64,000 nt of DNA, taken from NCBI GenBank assembly GCA_027493445.1, contig JAOSKU010000001.1, forward strand, positions 1,878,822-1,942,821, given 5' to 3'. Each line of letters opens with the position of its first letter. The stretch's first letter is position 1. The stretch comes from Thermoleophilia bacterium (GTDB lineage: Bacteria; Actinomycetota; Thermoleophilia; RBG-16-64-13). Shown in pieces: positions 19,342 to 47,666 of this stretch. A program made the position numbers and the translations under genes. The notes beneath the pieces were generated by a model that ran no database searches, was not told the DNA's origin, and worked only from the letters and a program-made list of their open reading frames with translations.

Positions 19342-19689
19342 GTGATACCGCTCCCAGGCAGACGACCAGGAGGAGTATGCACGATGCACAGAAGACCGAG
19401 ACGGAATCACTCCCCGGCGTTCAAGGCCAAGGTGGCCCTGGAAGCCATCAGGGGTGAAGAGCCCCTCATCGTGATCGCTGAGCGGTTCGACGTGCACCCC
19501 AACCAGATCACCAAGTGGAAGCGGCAGCTCCTCGAGGGCGCAGCGACTGTCTTCGGGGAGGAAGAGAAGGCCAGGGAGGAGGGGCCCAGCGTCGCCGAAC
19601 TGCACGCGAAGATCGGCGAGCTCACCATGGAGTTGGGTTTTTTGTCCGGTGCGCTCGGTCGCATGAGCGGCCCGAGCGCAAGGCGATGA
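19342..19689 (+). CDS. IS3-family transposase OrfA (HTH)
   Basis: See the mobile-element entry above. Confidence 0.7.
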   Translation: MIPLPGRRPGGVCTMHRRPRRNHSPAFKAKVALEAIRGEEPLIVIAERFDVHPNQITKWKRQLLEGAATVFGEEEKAREEGPSVAELHAKIGELTMELGFLSGALGRMSGPSARR

Positions 19690-20050
19690 TCGACCGGACC
19701 TATCCTCTGTCGATCACGAGGCGGGCCGAACTTCTTGATCTCTCCCGCTCGAGCGTCTGCTACCAGCCCGCTCCGACGAGCGAGAGCGACCTGACCTTGA
19801 TGGCCGCCATGGACGAGATCCACCTGACCTACCCTTTTTATGGGATGAGGCGGATCCGGAACGAGCTCCGTGACCGGGGCTTCGTGGTGGGGCGCGGGCA
19901 CGTGGCCACCCTCATGCGGAAGATGGGCGTCCAGGCGCTCTATCCCAAGCGCCGGCTGTCCCTGCCGCACCCGGGGCACAGGATCTACCCCTACCTCCTG
20001 CGGGGGAGGGACATCGCCTGCGCCGGGGAAGTATGGGCGGCCGACGTCGA
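19342..20050 (+). mobile_element. IS3-family insertion sequence, 5' portion only. It carries orfA, a -1 slippery site and the N-terminal third of orfB, and is truncated by group II intron insertion at 20050/20051
   Basis: OrfA (19342-19689) has the HTH with FKAKVALEAIRGEEPLIVIAERF. The heptamer TTTTTTG lies at 19636-19642. The OrfB frame gives ERKAMIDRTYPLSITRRAELLDLSRSSVCYQP...GEVWAADV and then loses homology before the DDE W..DITY motif. Confidence 0.7.
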
Positions 20051-21068
20051 GCGCCACGAGGCGCTCTCCTACCGAGTGGAGGTGAAAGGACTCCACCGGC
20101 GGGCTGTCGCAGCAGCCCGCGCGAAGCTGAGGGCAGCCTGACCCTGGAGACGCAGGGAAGGGTGGCAAGCAGCCCTGACAACGACGGGACGGGTCGGCAC
20201 TGCCAGACGGCCCGGGTCCGGCAAGCAAGGCGGAAAGGTGTACGTAAGAAACCAGTGCTATAAGACCCCTAAAGTCGCACCACCAGCTCGAACCTGGCGG
20301 ATCTGGGCTGGGAAGCGGCGCGTACCCGCCGAGGCGGGGAACTCCTCTGCCGGTTCACATGTCGCTGGCAGGGAGGCCACACTGAAGAACTGCGGCGTAG
20401 GTGTGGCAAGGCCGCAGGGGCATAGCTGGGCACCTCCTCCGCCGATCGGTAGAAGAGTGAACGTGGGAACCCTCCGACGTCGCCCTCCCGCCCCGTGGTG
20501 GTGGGCAGGCCCGTCGTCGGCCGATGGCGCCGGAGGGGGCGGAGCCTGCATAGTAGTCCGAGGACGGGAAAGCCGTCCACATGGCGAAGGCAGGCAGCGA
20601 GTTCGCAGCAGAAGGACTGAAAAACCAGGAGGTCGCCCGTGAACACGGGTGCACCGTGGCCGAGCCTCCACGAGGCGGAAGCCCGGGTACTGGAGATTCA
20701 GACCAAGCTGCACCGCAGGGCCGGCGAAGACGAGGGTCGCCGGTTCGATGATCTTTTCAACCTCGTCTATGACCCGGCCTTCCTGCTCATAGCCTGGAGG
20801 CGGGTCCGGGAGAACAAGGGCGCCCGCACTGCTGGCGTCGACGGTGAGTCCGCTTGCAGCATCGAGACTCGTCGCGGCGTCGAGGCCTTCCTTTGCGATC
20901 TGCGCGGCCAACTCAAGGCCCGCACGTTTTGGCCTCAGCCTGTACGGGAGCGACTGATTCCCAAACCGGGGTCGCGGAAGCGACGTCGTCTGGGCATCCC
21001 CACCGTGCGGGATCGAGTAGTGCAGGCCGCCTTCAAGCTGGTGCTCGAACCCATCTTCGAGGCGGATT
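20051..21068 (+). mobile_element. group II intron copy 1, 5' part. Ribozyme domains I-III are followed by the start of the domain IV intron-encoded protein (RT domains 0-2, CDS 20639-21068). It is interrupted by the second intron
   Basis: The RT fragment shows GVDG, RLIPKPGSRKRRRLGIPTVRDRVVQ and LEPIFE. About 590 nt upstream (20051-20640) is paralogous to 21069-21670. The 5' end GAGCGCCACGAGGCGCT resembles the GUGCG consensus. Confidence 0.65.
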
Positions 21069-22527
21069 GTGCGCCACGAGGCGCTGTTTCACCGGGGGAG
21101 GTGAAAGACCTCCCTGGCTGGCCGTCGCAGCGGCCGGTTGGAAGCTGACGGCAGCCCGAGCTTGGGAGTGCAAGCATCGGGTGGGAGCAGCCGTGACGAC
21201 GTAGCGGAGGCGTGGTACTGCCAGACACGCCGGCCGCGCTAGCAAGATGGGAAGGGATAGCGATCGCGAACGAGTGCCTGACGCCCCTTGATTCGAAAAC
21301 GACCCAGAACCTGGTGGATGCGGGTCGGGGGCAGCGCTGCGGCGGCCGTAGTTTGTGGCCGCTGCTCTTGGGTGCCGCTTACTAGGTGCGGCGCGCGAGA
21401 CCGTGGGGAAGGGCTGCGGCGTACCCACGGTGAGGCTGCAGGGGTAAAGCTCGGTCCCGCCCCCGTCAACCGGTGGGCAGTGAACGTGGGAACCCTCCCG
21501 GTATCGCCCTCCCCGAAGGCCAGACAGGTCGTCGGCGGGCAGGCGCACTGTCAGCTGATGGTGCCGGGAGGGGGCAGAGCCCTCGTAGTAGTCGGAGCCC
21601 GGGAGAGCCGGGCACAGGGCGAAGGAGGGCAGCAGACTTGGCACGCGGTCCGGTCGCAAGGAGGTCGGCGGTGAATACCGTCGCGCCGTGGCCGTCGGTC
21701 TTGGAGGCCGAAGCCCGGGTACTTCATGTCCAGACCAAGTTCCACAAGTGGGCAGCAACCGATCAGACTCAGCAGTTCCACGATCTGTTCAACCTCGTTG
21801 GTGACCGGGCGACCCTGGTGGTGGCCTGGCAGCGGATACGGACGAATCGTGGCTCCCGCACGGCTGGAGTGGATGGAATCACCCGCCGCGACGTCGAGCA
21901 ACGCGTCGGCGTTGAGCGGTTTTTGGATGGCATCCGCTTGTCCTTGAAAGACGGGTCGTATCGGCCCCAACCGGTCCGTGAGCGCATGATCCCCAAGGCT
22001 GGCGGCAAGCTACGTCGGCTGGGGATCGCCACGCTGCGCGACCGGGTCGTGCAGATGGCGCTGAAGCTCGTGCTGGAACCGATCTTCGAGCCAGACCAGT
22101 ACCGGTCGAGCTACGCCTACCGGCCGGGACGCCGCGCTCAGGACGCCGTCGCCGAGATTGTTCACTTGGTGAACAACGGCTATGAGTGGGTGGTCGAGGG
22201 TGATGTGGAGGCCTGCTTCGATTCCATCGAGCATCGCTTGGTGGTGAAGCAGTTGCGTACTCGCCTCACCGACCATCGAGTCCTGGGGCTGTGCAAGGCG
22301 TTCCTGAAGGCCGGGGTGCTCACTGAACTGGGGCGGCTCCAACGAACGGTCACCGGCACGCCGCAGGGGGCATTATCTGCCCACTGTTTGCTAACCTGGC
22401 GCTGCACGCCGCTCTCGACGAGCACTTTGCCTCGGTGTGGGCGGCGCAGTCGAGGTATCGCAACCAGCGCACCTACCTGCGCTCCAAGGGGCAGGCCACC
22501 TATCGACTCATCCGCTATGCGGACTTA
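21069..22527 (+). mobile_element. group II intron copy 2, 5' part. It starts GTGCGCC inside the RT gene of copy 1. Its own RT (CDS 21671-22527, RT0-RT5) has a frame slip at the G run 22366-22370 and is broken in the YADD motif by an IS
   Basis: The RT shows GVDG, RLGIATLRDRVVQ, SYAYRPGRRAQDAV, ACFDSIEH and GTPQG, and after a one-base frame correction GIICPLFANLALH...RYAD, before the sequence is replaced. SD AAGGAGG precedes GTG 21671. Confidence 0.7.
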
Positions 22528-23940
22528 TGTTGAGCTCAACATAAGTCCGTGGGGGTATCCATTTAACCGGAGTAATCGAGATCGGCAGTTCTCCACGGGC
22601 GGTTCGCTGGAGGGCGCTCCAAGCTCGGGGGATGCCCGCGCGCCCGGGGTGGCGCAGGCGGTACTGCCCGGGGCCGCGGGCTGGCGATGAGGTCCTGGTA
22701 GCGCACCGGGTCGTGGCCGACGGCGAGATCGAGCAGCCGGTAGAACAGCATCCCGCTTGAGATTCACGGCGGCCAGTTCCTCGTCGGGCACCTTGATGCC
22801 CTTCTCGTAGGTGTTTTGGTCGAGTTCACAGCGCACCCGCAGTCCGGAGCGGGTCACGGTGGCCGCGATCAGGTTGACGATGACTTCGTGACTGATCAGA
22901 GGTTTGCCCCGCCAGTTCTGGGTGATGAACGAAAACAGGCGGTGCTCGATCCGGTTCCACTTGCTGGTGCCCGGGGAAGGTGAGAGACCCCGATCGTGAG
23001 CCCCGTCTCGTTGGCCAACTTCTGCAGTTCGACCTTCCACAGCCGGAGACGGTAGCCGTTGCTTCCCCCGCAGTCGGCGGTGATGAGGAGTCGGTGGGCG
23101 TCGGGGTACCTCTCTTTACCCATCGAGTGCCACCAGCGGAGAATGCTCTGCACGGCGAAAGCCGCGGTATCGTGGTCGGTGCCCACGCTGACCCAGCCCA
23201 GGTTGCCCGCCAGATCGTAGATCCCATAGGGGTTCGCCTTTCCCAACTCGGGGACCATGAAATCATGCACGCGCACCGCTTCTGGATCCCCCTTCGGACG
23301 CAGTTCTCGGCCCCCGTTCTTGAAGTCGCCCACCAGCTCCTTCTTCTTGGTGTCCACGGAGATGACCGGGTCGTTGCGGGCTTGGTACTCCTTGACCTTC
23401 TCGTTTAGGTGTCGAAACTGAGCGTCTCGATCGGGATGGGACGAGCCTTCCCGGGTCTTGCGGTTCCCCTGGAGGCTATAGCCCATGTCGTGCAGCAGTT
23501 CGGCGACCATGCGATGGCTCGTCTGGTGCCCCATCCGCGTGAGCTCATCGGCCAGGCGGCGAACGCTCTTTAAGGTCCAGCGCAAGGGCGACTCCGGATC
23601 GCCTCGGGTCTCCGGTTCCACCAGGCGCTCCAGGTCGTCGCGAAGGGTCGGATCCGTGTCCACGGTGCGCTTGCGTCCGCCGCCCTCTCGCCGGATGCGC
23701 CCGCGCGGCGCGAGGTCCGGATGGGCAAGCTCCCGAGATCCCGCCGTGATCGCCCGCCGCGAAACCCCCGTCACCCGGGCCACGAGCGTGTTCCCGCCCC
23801 GGCCGGCGGCCAACGCTTCCGCCGCGGCCACCAGGCGTCGGCTACGCTCATCTAGGAAGGGGGCCAAAAGCTCGAATCGTTCTTTGATGCCGGCCTCTCC
23901 ACCCATGCGGTGAAGCGTAGCACGGTCGGGCCGGTTTCGC
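22522..23940 (-). mobile_element. ISAzo13-family insertion sequence, truncated at the transposase C-terminal end. The transposase CDS is 22525-23906 with a frame slip at 22973-22976
   Basis: N-terminal HTH region, then VSHLPPGTSKWNRIEHRLFSFITQNWRGKPL, which is the ISAzo13 hallmark (YPPGTSKWNKIEHRLF). The expected distal FHGEWNY motif is absent. Confidence 0.65.
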
Positions 23941-24080
23941 TACTGTTATTTTGTGACAGGCCCTTAGAGGCGCCTAGCCTCTCGCTCTAGAAGCGTTCTC
24001 AAGGCTACAAACCGCGATCGGGCCCGAGCGAGCAGGGCTCCGTGCCCCCTCGTTATGCAGGTACGGTCTCCACTAATTGA

Positions 24081-25030
<950 letters not shown>

Positions 25031-25519: not shown

Positions 25520-25888
25520 TTACTCAGACTCTTGGCCTTCGGAGCGCAGGGGCTGCTCGGGGTCGCCGCGGCTGTCCGTGTCTACCTGGCGCTCCAGATC
25601 GCCAAGCAGGCTGGGGTCCTTCTCCACCAGGGGCTTGCGGCCCGCACCCGGGCGACGAACCCGGCCGGGCTCAAACCTCTCCCCGCGCTTAAGCTCACCG
25701 CGGCCGCGCCGGATGGTGGAGCGCGCCATTCCAGTCGCTCGCGCAACCGCCGCCGTCCCGCCCCGCCCCTGGGCGTTGGCCTCCGCCGCCGCCCACAGCC
25801 GCATCCCGCGCTCGTCGAGCCGGACGGCAAGCATCTGGAATAGGCGATGGTAGCTCATTCCAACGACTTCCCCGATCAGAGGGAACAA
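25520..25888 (-). pseudogene. second ISAzo13-family transposase copy, N-terminal 120-aa fragment
   Basis: LAVRLDERGMRLWAAAEANAQGRGGTAAVARATGMARSTIRRGRGEL is collinear with the N-terminus of the 22525-23906 transposase (LAPFLDERSRRLVAAAEALAAGRGGNTLVARVTGVSRRAITAGSREL). Confidence 0.55.
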
Positions 25889-26098: not shown

Positions 26099-27268
26099 CT
26101 ATCTGGCGATGCACTCCGGAAGCAGCGATCTCATTCTCACCAGGTTGTAGGCGGCGGCCGTGAACTGGAAGATCCATCGGGCCTTGGCCCGCCCGCGGTG
26201 CCGGAGCTTGTGAAGCAGTCCGACTGTCTTCATCCAGCCGAAGGCCTCCTCCACCAGCTTGCGCTTCTTCTGGCTGAGGGCGTATCCCTCCCACCGTGTC
26301 GTGCGGCCATCGATGGCCGAGTACTTCTCTTTGCGAGCCACATGCGGGGTAACAACGTTAGTCCGTAGTTCGCCCACGAAGTCCTTGGTGTCGTAGTTCT
26401 TGTCGGCTGCGACAGTGAACCGGCCCTTGGTCTTTTTGCGCTCCTCCTTCACCAGCTCAAGACCCATCTCCCGCTCGGCGGTACCGGTGGCCCGGGAGAG
26501 ATCGGCCTGGACGATGAGACCGTGGCGGTTCTCGGTGAGGAGATGGCCGGCATAAGCGAGCCGGGCCGCTTCTCCGGGAGAGTGTTTGGCAAGAAGAGCT
26601 TCCGGATCGGTGGTGGAAGCGTGGGTGTCATTCCGGCGCCGCTCGCCGTGGAAATCCACACTCGGGTTGCGGTCGCGGCCTGCGCTTTCCGAGACTGGCT
26701 CGGCGGGGCTCGGGTCCTCCCCTGCACCCGGGTCATCTTTGCCTGGCCCCCGGCCGCCCTCCTGGCCCTCGGCCAATTCCTGTTTGGGCCGGAAGCTCTT
26801 GAGGGAGGCCGCCGCTTCCACCAAGGTGCCGTCCAGGCTGAAGTGCTCCCGGGAAAGGAGTTTCCCCGCCTGGGCCTGCTTCCTCACCTCCAGGAAGAAG
26901 GCCTCGGCCACCTCGCCCTCAAGCAGGCGCTCCCGGTTTTGGGTGAAGGTGGTGGGATGCCAGACGGGCTCGTTTAGATCGAGGCCCACAAACCAGCGAA
27001 AGAGCAGGTGATACTCGAGGTGTTCGCAGAGCTTGCGCTCCGAAGGGATGGCGTAGAGCACCTGAATAAGCAGGGCTCGCAGAAGGTACTCGGGCGGGAT
27101 GGAGGGGCGGCCGGCTTCACAGTAGATCTTGTCAAAGAGGGGGGAGAGACCGCAAAGCGCCTTATCGGTCATCTTGCGGATGGCCCGCAAGGGGTGATCT
27201 TTGGGGATGCGCTCCTCCAAGGGACCCAAGAATACAAACGACGGCTGCCTTGCCTCTTCTCCCCGCAT
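26099..27268 (-). CDS. IS5-family DDE transposase (DUF772 N-terminal region plus DDE_Tnp_1), apparently intact
   Basis: 389 aa. LRALLIQVLYAIPSERKLCEHLEYHLLFRWFVGLDL (DUF772) and C-terminal ...DKNYDTKDFV..., ...GWMKTVGLLHKLRHRG... Confidence 0.7.
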   Translation of the reverse strand: MRGEEARQPSFVFLGPLEERIPKDHPLRAIRKMTDKALCGLSPLFDKIYCEAGRPSIPPEYLLRALLIQVLYAIPSERKLCEHLEYHLLFRWFVGLDLNEPVWHPTTFTQNRERLLEGEVAEAFFLEVRKQAQAGKLLSREHFSLDGTLVEAAASLKSFRPKQELAEGQEGGRGPGKDDPGAGEDPSPAEPVSESAGRDRNPSVDFHGERRRNDTHASTTDPEALLAKHSPGEAARLAYAGHLLTENRHGLIVQADLSRATGTAEREMGLELVKEERKKTKGRFTVAADKNYDTKDFVGELRTNVVTPHVARKEKYSAIDGRTTRWEGYALSQKKRKLVEEAFGWMKTVGLLHKLRHRGRAKARWIFQFTAAAYNLVRMRSLLPECIAR

Positions 27269-44593: not shown

Positions 44594-47365
44594 TCAGCTT
44601 GGTTCGCCCGTCACCGTCACACTTCCCTTCTGGATCCAGCCCGAGTCCAGCCCGCCGTCGTCTTCGGCGCGCAGCCACACGGTCTTCTGACCGAGGAAGG
44701 TGCTCTTGAAAGTCATGGACACCGCGAGCGTGAGGGGGGTGCCCGACTTGACCATGGAGCTCTGAGCGAGATCGATGGCCACCCGCTCGTTCTCCAGAGT
44801 ACCGGTTGTGCCCAAGGTGCCGCTCAACCAGGCCGTGTTGGCCGCGTTTCGCAGAAAGATCTTGTTGCGGTTCTCGTCTAGGTAGATGTACACCCCGCCG
44901 ACCCCGGTGATCGCCGTGCCCACGATCATCCGCATCCGCTTCAGGTTGGTCGCCCCGTTGGGATCGGCAAAGACGGCGGTGAAGATCTGGGCCTGCCCGG
45001 CCGGTAGATCTGCGAGCACGGCCGGATCCAAGGAGACGACCGCGGGCGCGCCCGTGGGCGCGTCGGCGGCAAAGGAGGCCGCGATGGTGTGATCGGCGCC
45101 GATGTCGGCGAAGTCGTAGGTGCCGATCGGCCCCACCGAGGCTCCGTCCACCACCACGTCGGAGATGTGGTAGCCGGCGTCGGGGGTGATGGTGAAGGTC
45201 AGGGAGGCCCCCGGGTTCACCGTCTGGGCGGTCGCCGGGGATATCTGACCGCCGGGGCCGGCGGAGGGGGTGATGGTGTAGGTGGTCGCGGCGGCGGCAA
45301 AGGAGGCCGCGATGGTGTGATCGGCGCCGATGTCGGCGAAGTCGTAGGTGCCGACCGGCCCCACCGAGGCTCCGTCCACCACCACGTCGGAGATGTGGTA
45401 GCCAGCGTCGGGGGTGATGGTGAAGGTCAGGGAGGCCCCCGGGTTCACCGTCTGGGCGGTCGCCGGGGATATCTGACCGCCGGGGCCGGCGGAGGGGGTG
45501 ATGGTGTAGGTGGTCGCGGCGGGCGCCGCGGTCACCGTCACACTTCCCTTCTGGATCCAGCCCGAGTCCAGCCCGCCGTCGTCTTCGGCGCGCAGCCACA
45601 CGGTCTTCTGACCGAGGAAGGTGCTCTTGAAAGTCATGGACACCGCGAGCGTGAGGGTGGTGCCCGACTTGACCATGGAGCTCTGAGCGAGATCGATGGC
45701 CACCCGCTCGTTCTCCAGAGTACCGGTTGTGCCCAAGGTGCCGCTCAACCAGGCCGTGTTGGCCGCGTTTCGCAGAAAGATCTTGTTGCGGTTCTCGTCT
45801 AGGTAGATGTACACCCCGCCGACCCCGGTGATCGCCGTGCCCACGATCATCCGCATCCGCTTCAGGTTGGTCGCCCCGTTGGGATCGGCAAAGACGGCGG
45901 TGAAGATCTGGGCCTGCCCGGCCGGTAGATCTGCGAGCACGGCCGGATCCAAGGAGACGACCGCGGGCGCGCCCGTGGGCGCGTCGGCGGCAAAGGAGGC
46001 CGCGATGGTGTGATCGGCGCCGATGTCGGCGAAGTCGTAGGTGCCGATCGGCCCCACCGAGGCTCCGTCCACCACCACGTCGGAGATGTGGTAGCCGGCG
46101 TCGGGGGTGATGGTGAAGGTCAGGGAGGCCCCCGGGTTCACCGTCTGGGCGGTCGCCGGGGATATCTGACCGCCGGGGCCGGCGGAGGGGGTGATGGTGT
46201 AGGTGGTCGCGGCGGCGGCAAAGGAGGCCGCGATGGTGTGATCGGCGCCGATGTCGGCGAAGTCGTAGGTGCCGACCGGCCCCACCGAGGCTCCGTCCAC
46301 CACCACGTCGGAGATGTGGTAGCCAGCGTCGGGGGTGATGGTGAAGGTCAGGGAGGCCCCCGGGTTCACCGTCTGGGCGGTCGCCGGGGATATCTGACCG
46401 CCGGGGCCGGCGGAGGGGGTGATGGTGTAGGTGGTGCCCGTGACCTGGACCACGTAGGTGTCGCCGCCCCCCATGTCAGCGTAGTCGCTGGGGGACACCT
46501 CTACGAGCACCGTTCCCGCCGCGTCCATGACGCGGAGGCGGTCCAAGGGAAAGAGCAGGCTCTGGCAATCGACCACCGCTGCCCCAGCGCTCTCAGTGGC
46601 TGAGGCCGTCTTTCCGCCCGAGGCGGCCTCCACCAATCCCCCGGCGGGAACTCCCTGGACCGTGACGTGATAGTCGGTGCGGGCCTCGAGCCAATCTGCG
46701 TCACCCGCCTTGGTGCTCGTCCCCCATCCGACCCGGTCAACAGCAACTTCGTTGTGGAGCCCTGCATCGACGACACCGTCGAGGCTGGAGCCGAAGCGCG
46801 CCACGATATGCCCGGTCTCGGTCTTGAGCAGCCTCGCGTGAGTGTAGACGTCCGCCGTCATGGGTTCAGCGCTGGACACGCCCAAATCGGTGGACGTGCC
46901 GCCGGAGTAACGGCCGACACTCCAAGGCCCCCCGGGAGTGTTCACGTCGTATTCTAGGCGGTACCCGGCCCAGTTGTTCGAGCCTGACTTCGCGGTGGCA
47001 TGCGCCAGATACAGGTAGATATTCCCGCCATTCGCGGGGTCGGTATTCCGAGTCCGCGCGGTCACCACTCGCGCGCCCGTCTGCCCGAGACGGGCCACCT
47101 TGTCTGATGTAGTTGTGTTGTGGACCAGCGCACCCCCCGTGACTGCGAAACCCGTGAGTGATCTGATCGCCTGGTAGTTGAGGAGGGTGTCGCTGTCGAA
47201 ATCATCGAGCTCGATGAGTCCGGATGAGAGACGGGTCATCGTGGCCGTGGCTGCAAGCGCCGGAGTCGCCGCGACTCCGATGGCCGCCAGCAGCACGATC
47301 ACCAGAACCACGGCCACCTGGCCGGAGTGCCGCCAAGTGCGCCGAAAAGCCGCTGCCAGTGTCAT
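44594..47365 (-). CDS. secreted cell-surface protein. It has four divergent InlB-B-repeat (PF18998-like) domains and two copies of an unknown ~140-aa domain
   Basis: Signal peptide MTLAAAFRRTWRHSGQVAVVLVIVLLAAIGVAATPALA. Four repeats of TYTITPSAGPGGQISPATAQTVNPGASLTFTITPDAGYHISDVVVDGASVGP.GTYDFADIGADHTIAASF. SD GAGGAGG before ATG 47365. The ORF is open to 47398. Confidence 0.7.
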   Translation of the reverse strand: MTLAAAFRRTWRHSGQVAVVLVIVLLAAIGVAATPALAATATMTRLSSGLIELDDFDSDTLLNYQAIRSLTGFAVTGGALVHNTTTSDKVARLGQTGARVVTARTRNTDPANGGNIYLYLAHATAKSGSNNWAGYRLEYDVNTPGGPWSVGRYSGGTSTDLGVSSAEPMTADVYTHARLLKTETGHIVARFGSSLDGVVDAGLHNEVAVDRVGWGTSTKAGDADWLEARTDYHVTVQGVPAGGLVEAASGGKTASATESAGAAVVDCQSLLFPLDRLRVMDAAGTVLVEVSPSDYADMGGGDTYVVQVTGTTYTITPSAGPGGQISPATAQTVNPGASLTFTITPDAGYHISDVVVDGASVGPVGTYDFADIGADHTIAASFAAAATTYTITPSAGPGGQISPATAQTVNPGASLTFTITPDAGYHISDVVVDGASVGPIGTYDFADIGADHTIAASFAADAPTGAPAVVSLDPAVLADLPAGQAQIFTAVFADPNGATNLKRMRMIVGTAITGVGGVYIYLDENRNKIFLRNAANTAWLSGTLGTTGTLENERVAIDLAQSSMVKSGTTLTLAVSMTFKSTFLGQKTVWLRAEDDGGLDSGWIQKGSVTVTAAPAATTYTITPSAGPGGQISPATAQTVNPGASLTFTITPDAGYHISDVVVDGASVGPVGTYDFADIGADHTIAASFAAAATTYTITPSAGPGGQISPATAQTVNPGASLTFTITPDAGYHISDVVVDGASVGPIGTYDFADIGADHTIAASFAADAPTGAPAVVSLDPAVLADLPAGQAQIFTAVFADPNGATNLKRMRMIVGTAITGVGGVYIYLDENRNKIFLRNAANTAWLSGTLGTTGTLENERVAIDLAQSSMVKSGTPLTLAVSMTFKSTFLGQKTVWLRAEDDGGLDSGWIQKGSVTVTGEPS
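44612..46447. repeat. direct tandem duplication of 2 x 921 bp, near-identical (one substitution seen, at 44733 vs 45654)
   Basis: 44886-45092 and 45807-46013 translate identically on the opposite strand. Copy boundaries lie at GTCACCGTCACACTTCCC, about 44612 and 45533. Confidence 0.85.
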
Positions 47366-47666
47366 CGAGCCACCTCCTCGGAACAGGGAGCCTTGCATGC
47401 GCCCATCCTGTTCTCGGTTTCCCAGCGCCCACCCCAGCCGGTGGCCGCGAGAGACCGAACCGTGCGAAGCGCTTCAAACGCGCTCTCGACAGATCCTCGC
47501 CGTACCTTTTCTTATACCATAGAGGAGCACAGGCCGGATGGGAAACTCGAACTCTTACCTTTCGCCTCCACCCCACCTTTACTTCCCCGCGAAGCAGTAC
47601 TAGCATGGCGGGTAGGGCGTCGATGCTCCGTAGTCCCGCACCTGGACCTGGGAAGGAGGTGCTGCG

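Follow-up and report, generated by a model that had tools for sequence, protein, structure and literature searches.

Recombinase in trio (RIT) elements carry three tandem tyrosine recombinase genes (ritA, ritB and ritC), whose products are classed as "simple" Xer-like tyrosine recombinases (PMC8138268). Their ends have been described in several ways: as a "28-9 bp" inverted repeat with an overlapping palindromic sequence (PMC3414803), as 47- and 51-bp imperfect palindromic repeats together with a 42-bp direct repeat (PMC5737581), and as 34-bp terminal inverted repeats, in a report noting that transposition has never been reproduced experimentally (PMC10214605). Published insertions lie in IS66 tnpA, the Tn6049 transposase and radC (PMC2864759, PMC3414803), and hairpin intermediates have been speculated (PMC5737581). 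Here we analyze a 64,000-nt window of a Thermoleophilia metagenome-assembled genome (MAG; contig JAOSKU010000001.1, positions 1,878,822 to 1,942,821), in which a perfect loopless palindrome stands between a truncated group II intron reverse transcriptase (RT) gene and remnants of two insertion sequences (ISs). We think it likely that a RIT element once integrated in the RT gene and that the palindrome is its junction site, left behind as an orphan. The palindrome is thus a scar of a known, though poorly understood, element family, and no new structure.

The palindrome and its core

The palindrome and its parts, in window coordinates, are as follows.

22520..22549, no strand: perfect loopless palindrome, CGGACTTATGTTGAG followed by CTCAACATAAGTCCG (palindrome scan and folding)
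22525..22544, no strand: 20-bp core of inverted XerD-arm-like 10-mers, TTATGTTGAG (22525-22534) and CTCAACATAA (22535-22544), identical to the RIT junction palindrome
22519..22524, plus strand: X hexamer GCGGAC, which makes up the Ala-Asp codons of YAD(D) and is the putative copy, on the target side, of the 6-bp crossover region
22545..22550, plus strand: X' hexamer GTCCG(T), putative element-side inverted copy of X, whose sixth base (T22550) is the terminal base of an IS1595-like element

The palindrome is real and far beyond chance. Its 15-nt arms meet at 22534/22535, and a scan of every position of the 64 kb found a runner-up with arms of only 9 nt; about 6e-5 loopless palindromes with arms of at least 15 nt are expected by chance in a sequence of this length. 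The first-pass annotation of this DNA, made from the sequence alone, had described a perfect loopless repeat of 28 bp; the repeat is indeed perfect and loopless, but it extends to 30 bp, and the 28-mer itself occupies 22521-22548, one base away from where it had been placed. That annotation was right to call the site AT-rich within GC-rich surroundings, the GC content of the 20-bp core being 30% against ∼60-65% locally, and also right that it is no terminator, the motif being instead a mobile-element end junction. Single-stranded folding of the 30-mer gives -15.1 kcal/mol (z = -5.1). The Rfam scan of the whole window returned zero matches, and hence neither intron RNA domains nor any other known RNA at the palindrome. 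Allowing up to two mismatches, the half-site has no second copy within the window, where a repeat search gave no relevant repeat, and the 28-mer had no matches in a metagenome scan.

The core is shared far more widely. An exact search for the 20-bp core TTATGTTGAGCTCAACATAA (that is, TTATGTTGAG abutting CTCAACATAA) across one genome per bacterial species matched at least 120 contigs, with 124 occurrences listed, against an expectation of ∼0.5. Carriers belong to Desulfobacterota, Elusimicrobiota, Verrucomicrobiota, Planctomycetota, Acidobacteriota, Actinomycetota, Firmicutes, and Proteobacteria, and include isolates (Granulicella rosea DSM 18704, Gemmiger formicilis ATCC 27749, and Sporolactobacillus nakayamae) as well as finished plasmids. 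This recurrence bears on the idea that the palindrome is an assembly or sequencing artefact, either a fold-back chimera or a hairpin. The source is a MAG and chimeric reads can produce perfect palindromes; yet the arms are only 15 nt long, the flanks are unrelated to one another, and the same core with the same arrangement of X and X' is found in at least 120 independent assemblies, isolates and finished plasmids among them. With an architecture so often repeated and arms so short, we take the artefact to be extremely unlikely.

What often accompanies the core elsewhere is a RIT element. In 77 of the 124 occurrences listed, one side carries two additional 10-mers, whose positions are exactly +6 and +23 and whose consensus is TTATGTgaAGT (TTATGTGAAG-like); the remaining 47 are orphans, as is the window copy. 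Where at least 1.5 kb of sequence was available on the 10-mer side, tyrosine recombinase genes start within 1.5 kb in 36 of 45 listed cases, as compared to 0 of the 64 sides of the 47 listed orphan copies. These genes form a run of three tandem Phage_integrase proteins (ritA/B/C), and integrase runs are also annotated next to the core on finished plasmids, including plasmid 2 of A. aromaticum EbN1, a published RIT carrier (PMC3414803). The core is thus associated with rit trios elsewhere.

Two variants of this arrangement were seen. Seven palindromes (L039, L042, L044, L063, L077, L091, and L094) have proper 10-mer pairs, with recombinase genes absent for several kilobases, and may be non-autonomous or decayed RIT ends. 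Another seven (L051, L085, L086, L110, L126, L129, and L130) are orphans within a longer perfect palindrome, TTCAGAnnTCCTG-core-CAGGAnnTCTGAA, with arms of up to 24 nt; their hosts are Lentisphaerota, Victivallales, and unclassified bacterial MAGs.

Architecture of RIT ends

The integrated elements share the layout target-X-TTATGTTGAGCTCAACATAA-X'-a-N7-b-ritABC-b'-N7-a'-X-target, in which X and X' are 6 bp each. The core was at a single end in 21 of the 24 complete insertions examined, adjoining ritA or ritC depending on the element. X repeats 6 bp of target sequence in direct orientation and recurs at the far end, exactly so in 11 of 17 complete insertions. Most RIT ends carry, as X', the reverse complement of X; the modal perfect extension past the core is exactly 6 nt per arm (28 of 77 cases among the matches listed). 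With the element and one copy of X taken out, translation runs through the target gene without a break, as at L082 (..MDNHYHLLL..), L031 (..LLLLDEIGYL..), and L124 (..HTFRHSFASHLL..).

The 10-mers have counterparts in Xer systems. The XerD arm of CTX phage attP1 reads ..TTATGTTGAGG (PMC3089051), and Acinetobacter pdif reads ACTTCACATAA-GAAATT-TTATGTTAAAT (PMC12907356); both hold the XerD-arm sequence of the RIT 10-mers. By these arm sequences, a'-X-TTATGTTGAG and CTCAACATAA-X'-a are dif-like core sites of 10-6-10 form, which fits the Xer-like class of the Rit proteins. We propose that in the free, probably circular form two mirror-image core sites of this kind would lie back to back, as b'-N7-a'-X-a*/a*'-X'-a-N7-b (the slash marks the center of symmetry), and that strand exchange in one 6-bp spacer X would integrate the element. 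A crossover confined to one spacer would leave the abutted outer arms, and so the palindrome, at one end of the integrated element.

The targets follow a pattern of their own. It is very common for a flank to carry the catalytic motif of an enzyme from another mobile element, interrupted at one recurring codon. Among the 164 palindrome flanks of the matches listed (L021-L140), the HUH motif of Y1 transposases (IS200-like), in the form ..A(W/Y)xLMxNH(x), closes 41, nine start with LDE(L/I)GY, the Walker B motif of IstB, and at least four start with RHSFA, a tyrosine recombinase motif. No flank in this set ends with YAD, the RT motif, for which we have three cases: the window, L145, and the homolog P0292.

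Three RITs (L075, L121, and L138) have the palindrome at both ends, and six orphans (L040, L098, L099, L111, L132, and L134) resemble them in their flanks. In the two-palindrome RITs and many orphans, the flanks are diverged copies (∼75% identity) of the same half of the target gene, arranged head to head and cut at the same codon; at L138, the inverted homology takes in ArdC-like genes more than 1 kb away. Judging from these flank sequences, such arrangements suggest RIT-mediated inversions or joins between separate insertions. Recombination between copies that had integrated via two mirror sites would give head-to-head flanks of this kind.

The interrupted reverse transcriptase gene

The left flank of the window palindrome is a single feature.

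21671..22524, plus strand: group II intron RT pseudogene, the putative RIT target, with a frameshift near 22366-22372 and cut after the first D of YADD

Pfam identifies RVT_N and RVT_1 in it. After repair of the frameshift, the product matches positions 3-214 of the 353 of TIGR04416 (the NCBIfam group II intron RT/maturase model), the match reaching its last residue; the score of 243 bits falls under the 300-bit cut-off because the RT is truncated. With the intact homolog P0192 as tblastn query, RT homology runs up to 22524 and no farther, which puts its end at the first D of YADD and at the last base of X; no RT C-terminus or maturase part was found elsewhere in the window. The frame reads ..LIRYAD and then, past the homology, L-C-stop within the left arm of the palindrome, as the first-pass annotation had it.

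Two RT homologs, P0284 and P0292, both end in ..RYAD-LCGHPH... In the contig of P0284 (L145), a complete rit trio (403, 308, and 311 aa) directly follows YAD, with a variant palindrome, CTATGCGGAC abutting ATCCGCATAG, then ATCCGC, then TTATGCCGAG-N7-TTATGCCGAG. On the evidence of these sequences, RIT insertion at the YAD codon of RT genes is recurrent. The variant palindrome at L145:4190-4330 is imperfect and belongs to a distinct RIT lineage, at the same YAD codon of another RT. Its half-site CTATGCGGAC is identical to the window RT codons C-TAT-GCG-GAC (22515-22524), which could be target mimicry or coincidence.

Window positions 20051-22524 hold two partial group II introns in tandem, at a distance of ∼1020 bp and with patches of 70-100% similarity. 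The RT of the first (20639-21067) is cut at ..EPIFEAD, after which comes CAPRG.., resembling the 5' end of the second intron (GTGCGCCC..); from this resemblance, the interruption of the first RT by the second intron looks like what would be a nested intron (twintron). Many RTs of the same clade (P0193, P0226, P0261, P0281, P0282, P0296, P0297, P0305, and P0309) end just past YADD with tails of the form CVPRTLKE.. or CAPRRRGE.., and at L146:6001-10720 more RT/maturase genes lie downstream of the RT. From such RTs and the gene order of L146, it seems that other group II introns also home to the YADD codons.

Insertion sequences on the right flank

Two truncated ISs follow the palindrome.

22550..22747, minus strand: 3'-terminal 198 bp of an IS1595-family (ISXO2-like) element, covering the final 61 transposase codons (stop at 22563-22565) and the right inverted repeat ...CTCCGGTTAAATGGATACCCCCA
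22748..23964, minus strand: ISAzo13-family element, positions 1-1218 of ∼1293, frameshifted, with the last 75 bp and the right inverted repeat gone

The ISAzo13-family element (Pfam PF07592) is 99.8% identical to four full-length copies of 1293 bp (L001-L004). Its homology spans 23964 down to 22748, leaving 198 bp before the palindrome. The first-pass annotation had placed the palindrome at the junction of the RT with this element and had read the minus-strand transposase frame as passing through the palindrome and ending in it. The open reading frame (ORF; 22525-23040) does run across mechanically; transposase homology ends at 22748, however, and the ORF is therefore not transposase over its last 75 codons. 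It is the tip of the IS1595-family element that touches the palindrome.

The same comparison decides the explanation first offered for the palindrome, that it consists of the abutted terminal inverted repeats of an ISAzo13-type element, as in an IS circle or tandem junction. Abutted inverted repeats do yield loopless palindromes, and an ISAzo13 transposase gene lies nearby on the opposite strand. The full-length copies, the comparison proposed as a check on that explanation, begin AGGGCCTGTCA... and end ...TGACGGGCCCT, and these termini share nothing with either half of the palindrome; moreover, the window copy stops at 22748 with the IS1595-family fragment in between. We give this explanation virtually no chance. 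What holds of it is that the palindrome is a junction of mobile-element ends, with two inverted binding sites and no spacer, those of a RIT and not of ISAzo13.

The 61-residue fragment had no match in Pfam or NCBIfam, and its IS1595 identity came from the large protein search alone, in which it is 75-89% identical to many PF12762 (IS1595-family) database proteins; homologs of this transposase carry PF12762 and PF12760. As seen in seven independent copies (L005-L011), the element reads TGGGGGTATCCATTTAACCGGAG...CTCCGGTTAAATGGATACCCCCA from end to end, with inverted repeats TGGGGGTATCC.., 8-bp target duplications, and an apparently palindromic target preference of roughly ATA-N8-TAT. The ISXO2-like DDE transposase, inverted repeats, and 8-bp duplication of the IS1595 family are thus all found in these copies; the window holds only the last 198 bp of such an element. 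In most of the seven, the transposase is split over two or more called genes (e.g. 253 + 107 aa in L010).

In the window, the tip of the element is T22550, directly abutting the 30-bp palindrome; the palindrome/IS1595 junction CTCAACATAAGTCCGTGGGGG had no matches in the scanned genome contigs. At the other end of the fragment, the 22747/22748 junction with ISAzo13 (its position 1218) shows only ∼3 nt (ATG) of microhomology. This indicates, as far as the junction sequence goes, a product of illegitimate deletion and not a transposition junction.

Proposed history of the site

The window palindrome follows the grammar of bona fide RIT junctions: its core is identical, X and X' are complementary at five of six positions, the homology of the target gene stops with X, and the IS1595-like tip begins where 10-mer a would start. 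Missing are the recombinase trio (a tblastn search of the 64-kb window with six Rit proteins had no match with E below 0.4) and the paired 10-mers of the termini (TTATGTGAAG-N7-TTATGTGAAG), none of which lies beside the palindrome or elsewhere in the window. We therefore call it a relic site and not a RIT element. A scan for RIT ends with the spacer GTCCGN gave two matches, both chance ones in contigs of 39% GC.

We propose that a RIT integrated into the RT gene at the hexamer GCGGAC, the Ala-Asp codons of YADD, giving RT-GCGGAC-core-GTCCG(C)-RIT. An IS1595-family element would then have inserted at the inner edge of the palindrome, in the inner core site of the RIT, with TAAGTCCG as target octamer. 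The ATAA-N6-TTAT of RIT core sites resembles ATA-N8-TAT, which would explain an IS1595-like insertion there; to that extent there was some truth in the first-pass suggestion of an AT-rich target hotspot. Later illegitimate deletions would have removed the RIT body, most of the IS1595-like element, the 3' end of the neighboring ISAzo13, and the 3' half of the RT, and the same deletions would have fused the last 198 bp of the IS1595-like element to the truncated ISAzo13. By its sequence, the 30-bp relic retains two XerD-arm-like half sites and can be extruded as a hairpin with a 13-14-bp stem.

Several points weigh against this account. The 64-kb window has no rit gene, no a or b 10-mers, and no 3' half of the RT, so that we infer the RIT itself and do not see it. 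The core is not common to all RIT lineages, L145 having CTATGCGGAC and ATCCGCATAG in its place, and the IS1595-like element is 2 nt off the position predicted from the ATA-N8-TAT preference. The order of the IS1595 insertion and the deletions is not provable because the other IS end and the target duplication are gone. The circle junction and crossover are themselves drawn from the architecture of sequences, for an element whose transposition has never been reproduced (PMC10214605).

The exact abutment of palindrome and IS tip could have arisen in another way, with the orphan palindrome being a product of RIT recombination: the inner core site would have recombined with a second site, ACGGAC at the IS1595-like tip, joining the RT 5' half to it and carrying the RIT off. 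The head-to-head flanks cut at the same codon and never contiguous (L075, L121, L138, L098, L099, L111, L132, and L134) argue that RIT sites do mediate such joins, and the foreign flank in the window starts exactly +6 from the core, as in all orphans among the matches listed. Such joins, however, normally have the same type of target on both sides, whereas here an RT faces an IS tip, and the secondary target would have to coincide to the base with the IS terminus. The target preference of the IS1595-like element (ATA-N8-TAT, with 8-bp duplication) accounts more simply for its place at a RIT core site. On account of the base-exact secondary target and the differing flank types that it requires, we consider recombination unlikely, and IS insertion the more probable of the two.

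A further possibility is a host site unrelated to RITs: a chromosomal dif/Xer site, a regulator operator, or a target-site palindrome arising from the IS1595-like insertion. The half-sites are XerD-arm-like, and the site is AT-rich and symmetric as many operators are. In dif, though, XerC and XerD arms lie 6 bp apart, while here two XerD-like arms abut with zero spacer; the site lies inside a disrupted RT amid dead ISs; the seven other IS1595-like copies have ordinary 8-bp duplications and no palindrome; and the core is strongly associated with rit trios. A host site is very unlikely on these grounds. We also tried a dif-type Xer site in its full form (11-bp XerC arm, 6-bp center, and 11-bp XerD arm), and found abutting XerD-like arms, with flanking hybrid sites that have poor outer arms. 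IdeR, HAIR, and other operator boxes were rejected for unfit spacing and sequence, and the integron attC core was rejected, its GTTRRRY / RYYYAAC match being a by-product of the palindrome. A miniature inverted-repeat transposable element with terminal inverted repeats over 22535-22747 was rejected for its mismatched ends, and an origin of the arms as P-nucleotides or by hairpin opening was dropped as unneeded given the site-specific architecture.

Surrounding sequence

The palindrome lies in a graveyard of mobile DNA, with features at 19342-20050, 24080-25030, 25520-25888, and 26099-27268. Its members include an IS3-family fragment (HTH_Tnp_1 and HTH_21 only), a HigA-like antitoxin fragment, a small pair of genes at 24411-25030, a second ISAzo13-like N-terminal fragment, and an IS5/IS1182-like transposase (DUF772 and DDE_Tnp_1). 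Farther away, on the minus strand (44594-47398), an ORF of 934 aa holds direct repeats of 241 nt (four copies) and 300 nt (two copies, 100% identical), with repeated TYTITPSAGPGGQISP.. modules. Its sequence suggests a repeat-domain protein, probably a surface one, in which an internal duplication took place recently.

Implications

For the window, the result is mainly corrective: the palindrome is a RIT scar among dead ISs, not an ISAzo13 junction. Taken together with the other genomes, it invites a wider reading that we hold only tentatively and think rather doubtful, namely that RIT palindromes are double, back-to-back dif-like sites, that RITs home via the 6-bp spacer into catalytic-motif codons, and that orphans are still active recombination sites. 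The homing would be into HUH (Y1 transposases), Walker B (IstB), RH (tyrosine recombinases), and YADD (group II intron RTs), and the orphan palindromes would mark, and could still drive, rearrangements joining unrelated DNA. If this is true, RITs would parasitize other mobile elements in a site-specific manner, following a grammar of sites that can be tested.

The picture of RIT ends is sharper than in earlier descriptions (PMC3414803, PMC5737581, PMC10214605), with a strict 10-6-10 grammar, a core conserved exactly from phylum to phylum, a single palindrome in each integrated element, a 6-bp repeat of target sequence, and recurrent insertion at catalytic-motif codons of other mobile elements. 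The exact core across phyla, the Xer-like grammar, and the catalytic-codon insertion may go beyond the published descriptions other than that of Ricker et al. 2013. Transposition of RITs has never been reproduced in the laboratory (PMC10214605), and the predicted junction and crossover site make it directly testable.

Comparison with known systems

Several systems share single features with the site. Like the targets of telomere resolvases (protelomerases), it is a perfect palindrome, its center (GAGCTC) included, and would be acted on by enzymes of tyrosine recombinase type, but this is a resemblance only, with no linear hairpin-ended forms seen. The circle or tandem-dimer junctions of the IS3, IS30, IS256, and IS21 families are also palindromic through abutted inverted termini; they differ in their DDE transposases, in a spacer of 2-9 bp, and in being transient, whereas the RIT arms are stable in the integrated element. 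Closer in mechanism, the Tn916-type, Tn554, SE, and GInt elements have, like RIT, a 6-bp target-derived sequence at both junctions that is carried in the element, with a presumably circular intermediate, but in them neither end bears a perfect palindrome of 20 bp, and the hexamer lacks a third copy in inverted orientation.

The sites dif, pdif, and CTX attP of XerC/XerD correspond at the level of the arms. The RIT 10-mers equal XerD arms (TTATGTTGAG(G) in CTX attP1, ACTTCACATAA-N6-TTATGTTAAAT in pdif), and the RIT core site as we reconstruct it is likewise 10-6-10 with a 6-bp central region. The palindrome, in contrast, has two XerD-like arms back to back, with no central region and no XerC-type arm, and RIT sites go with a recombinase trio of their own instead of the Xer system of the host. 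The closest likeness is to RIT elements themselves (Van Houdt 2009/2012, PMC3414803; Nielsen 2017, PMC5737581). The window keeps only the junction palindrome and two 6-bp spacers, with no recombinase genes or 10-mer pairs in 64 kb; yet it has the same 20-bp core that is found at rit-trio ends in many phyla, where the spacing of the 10-mers is fixed with respect to the core and genes of other mobile elements are interrupted, as is the RT gene here.

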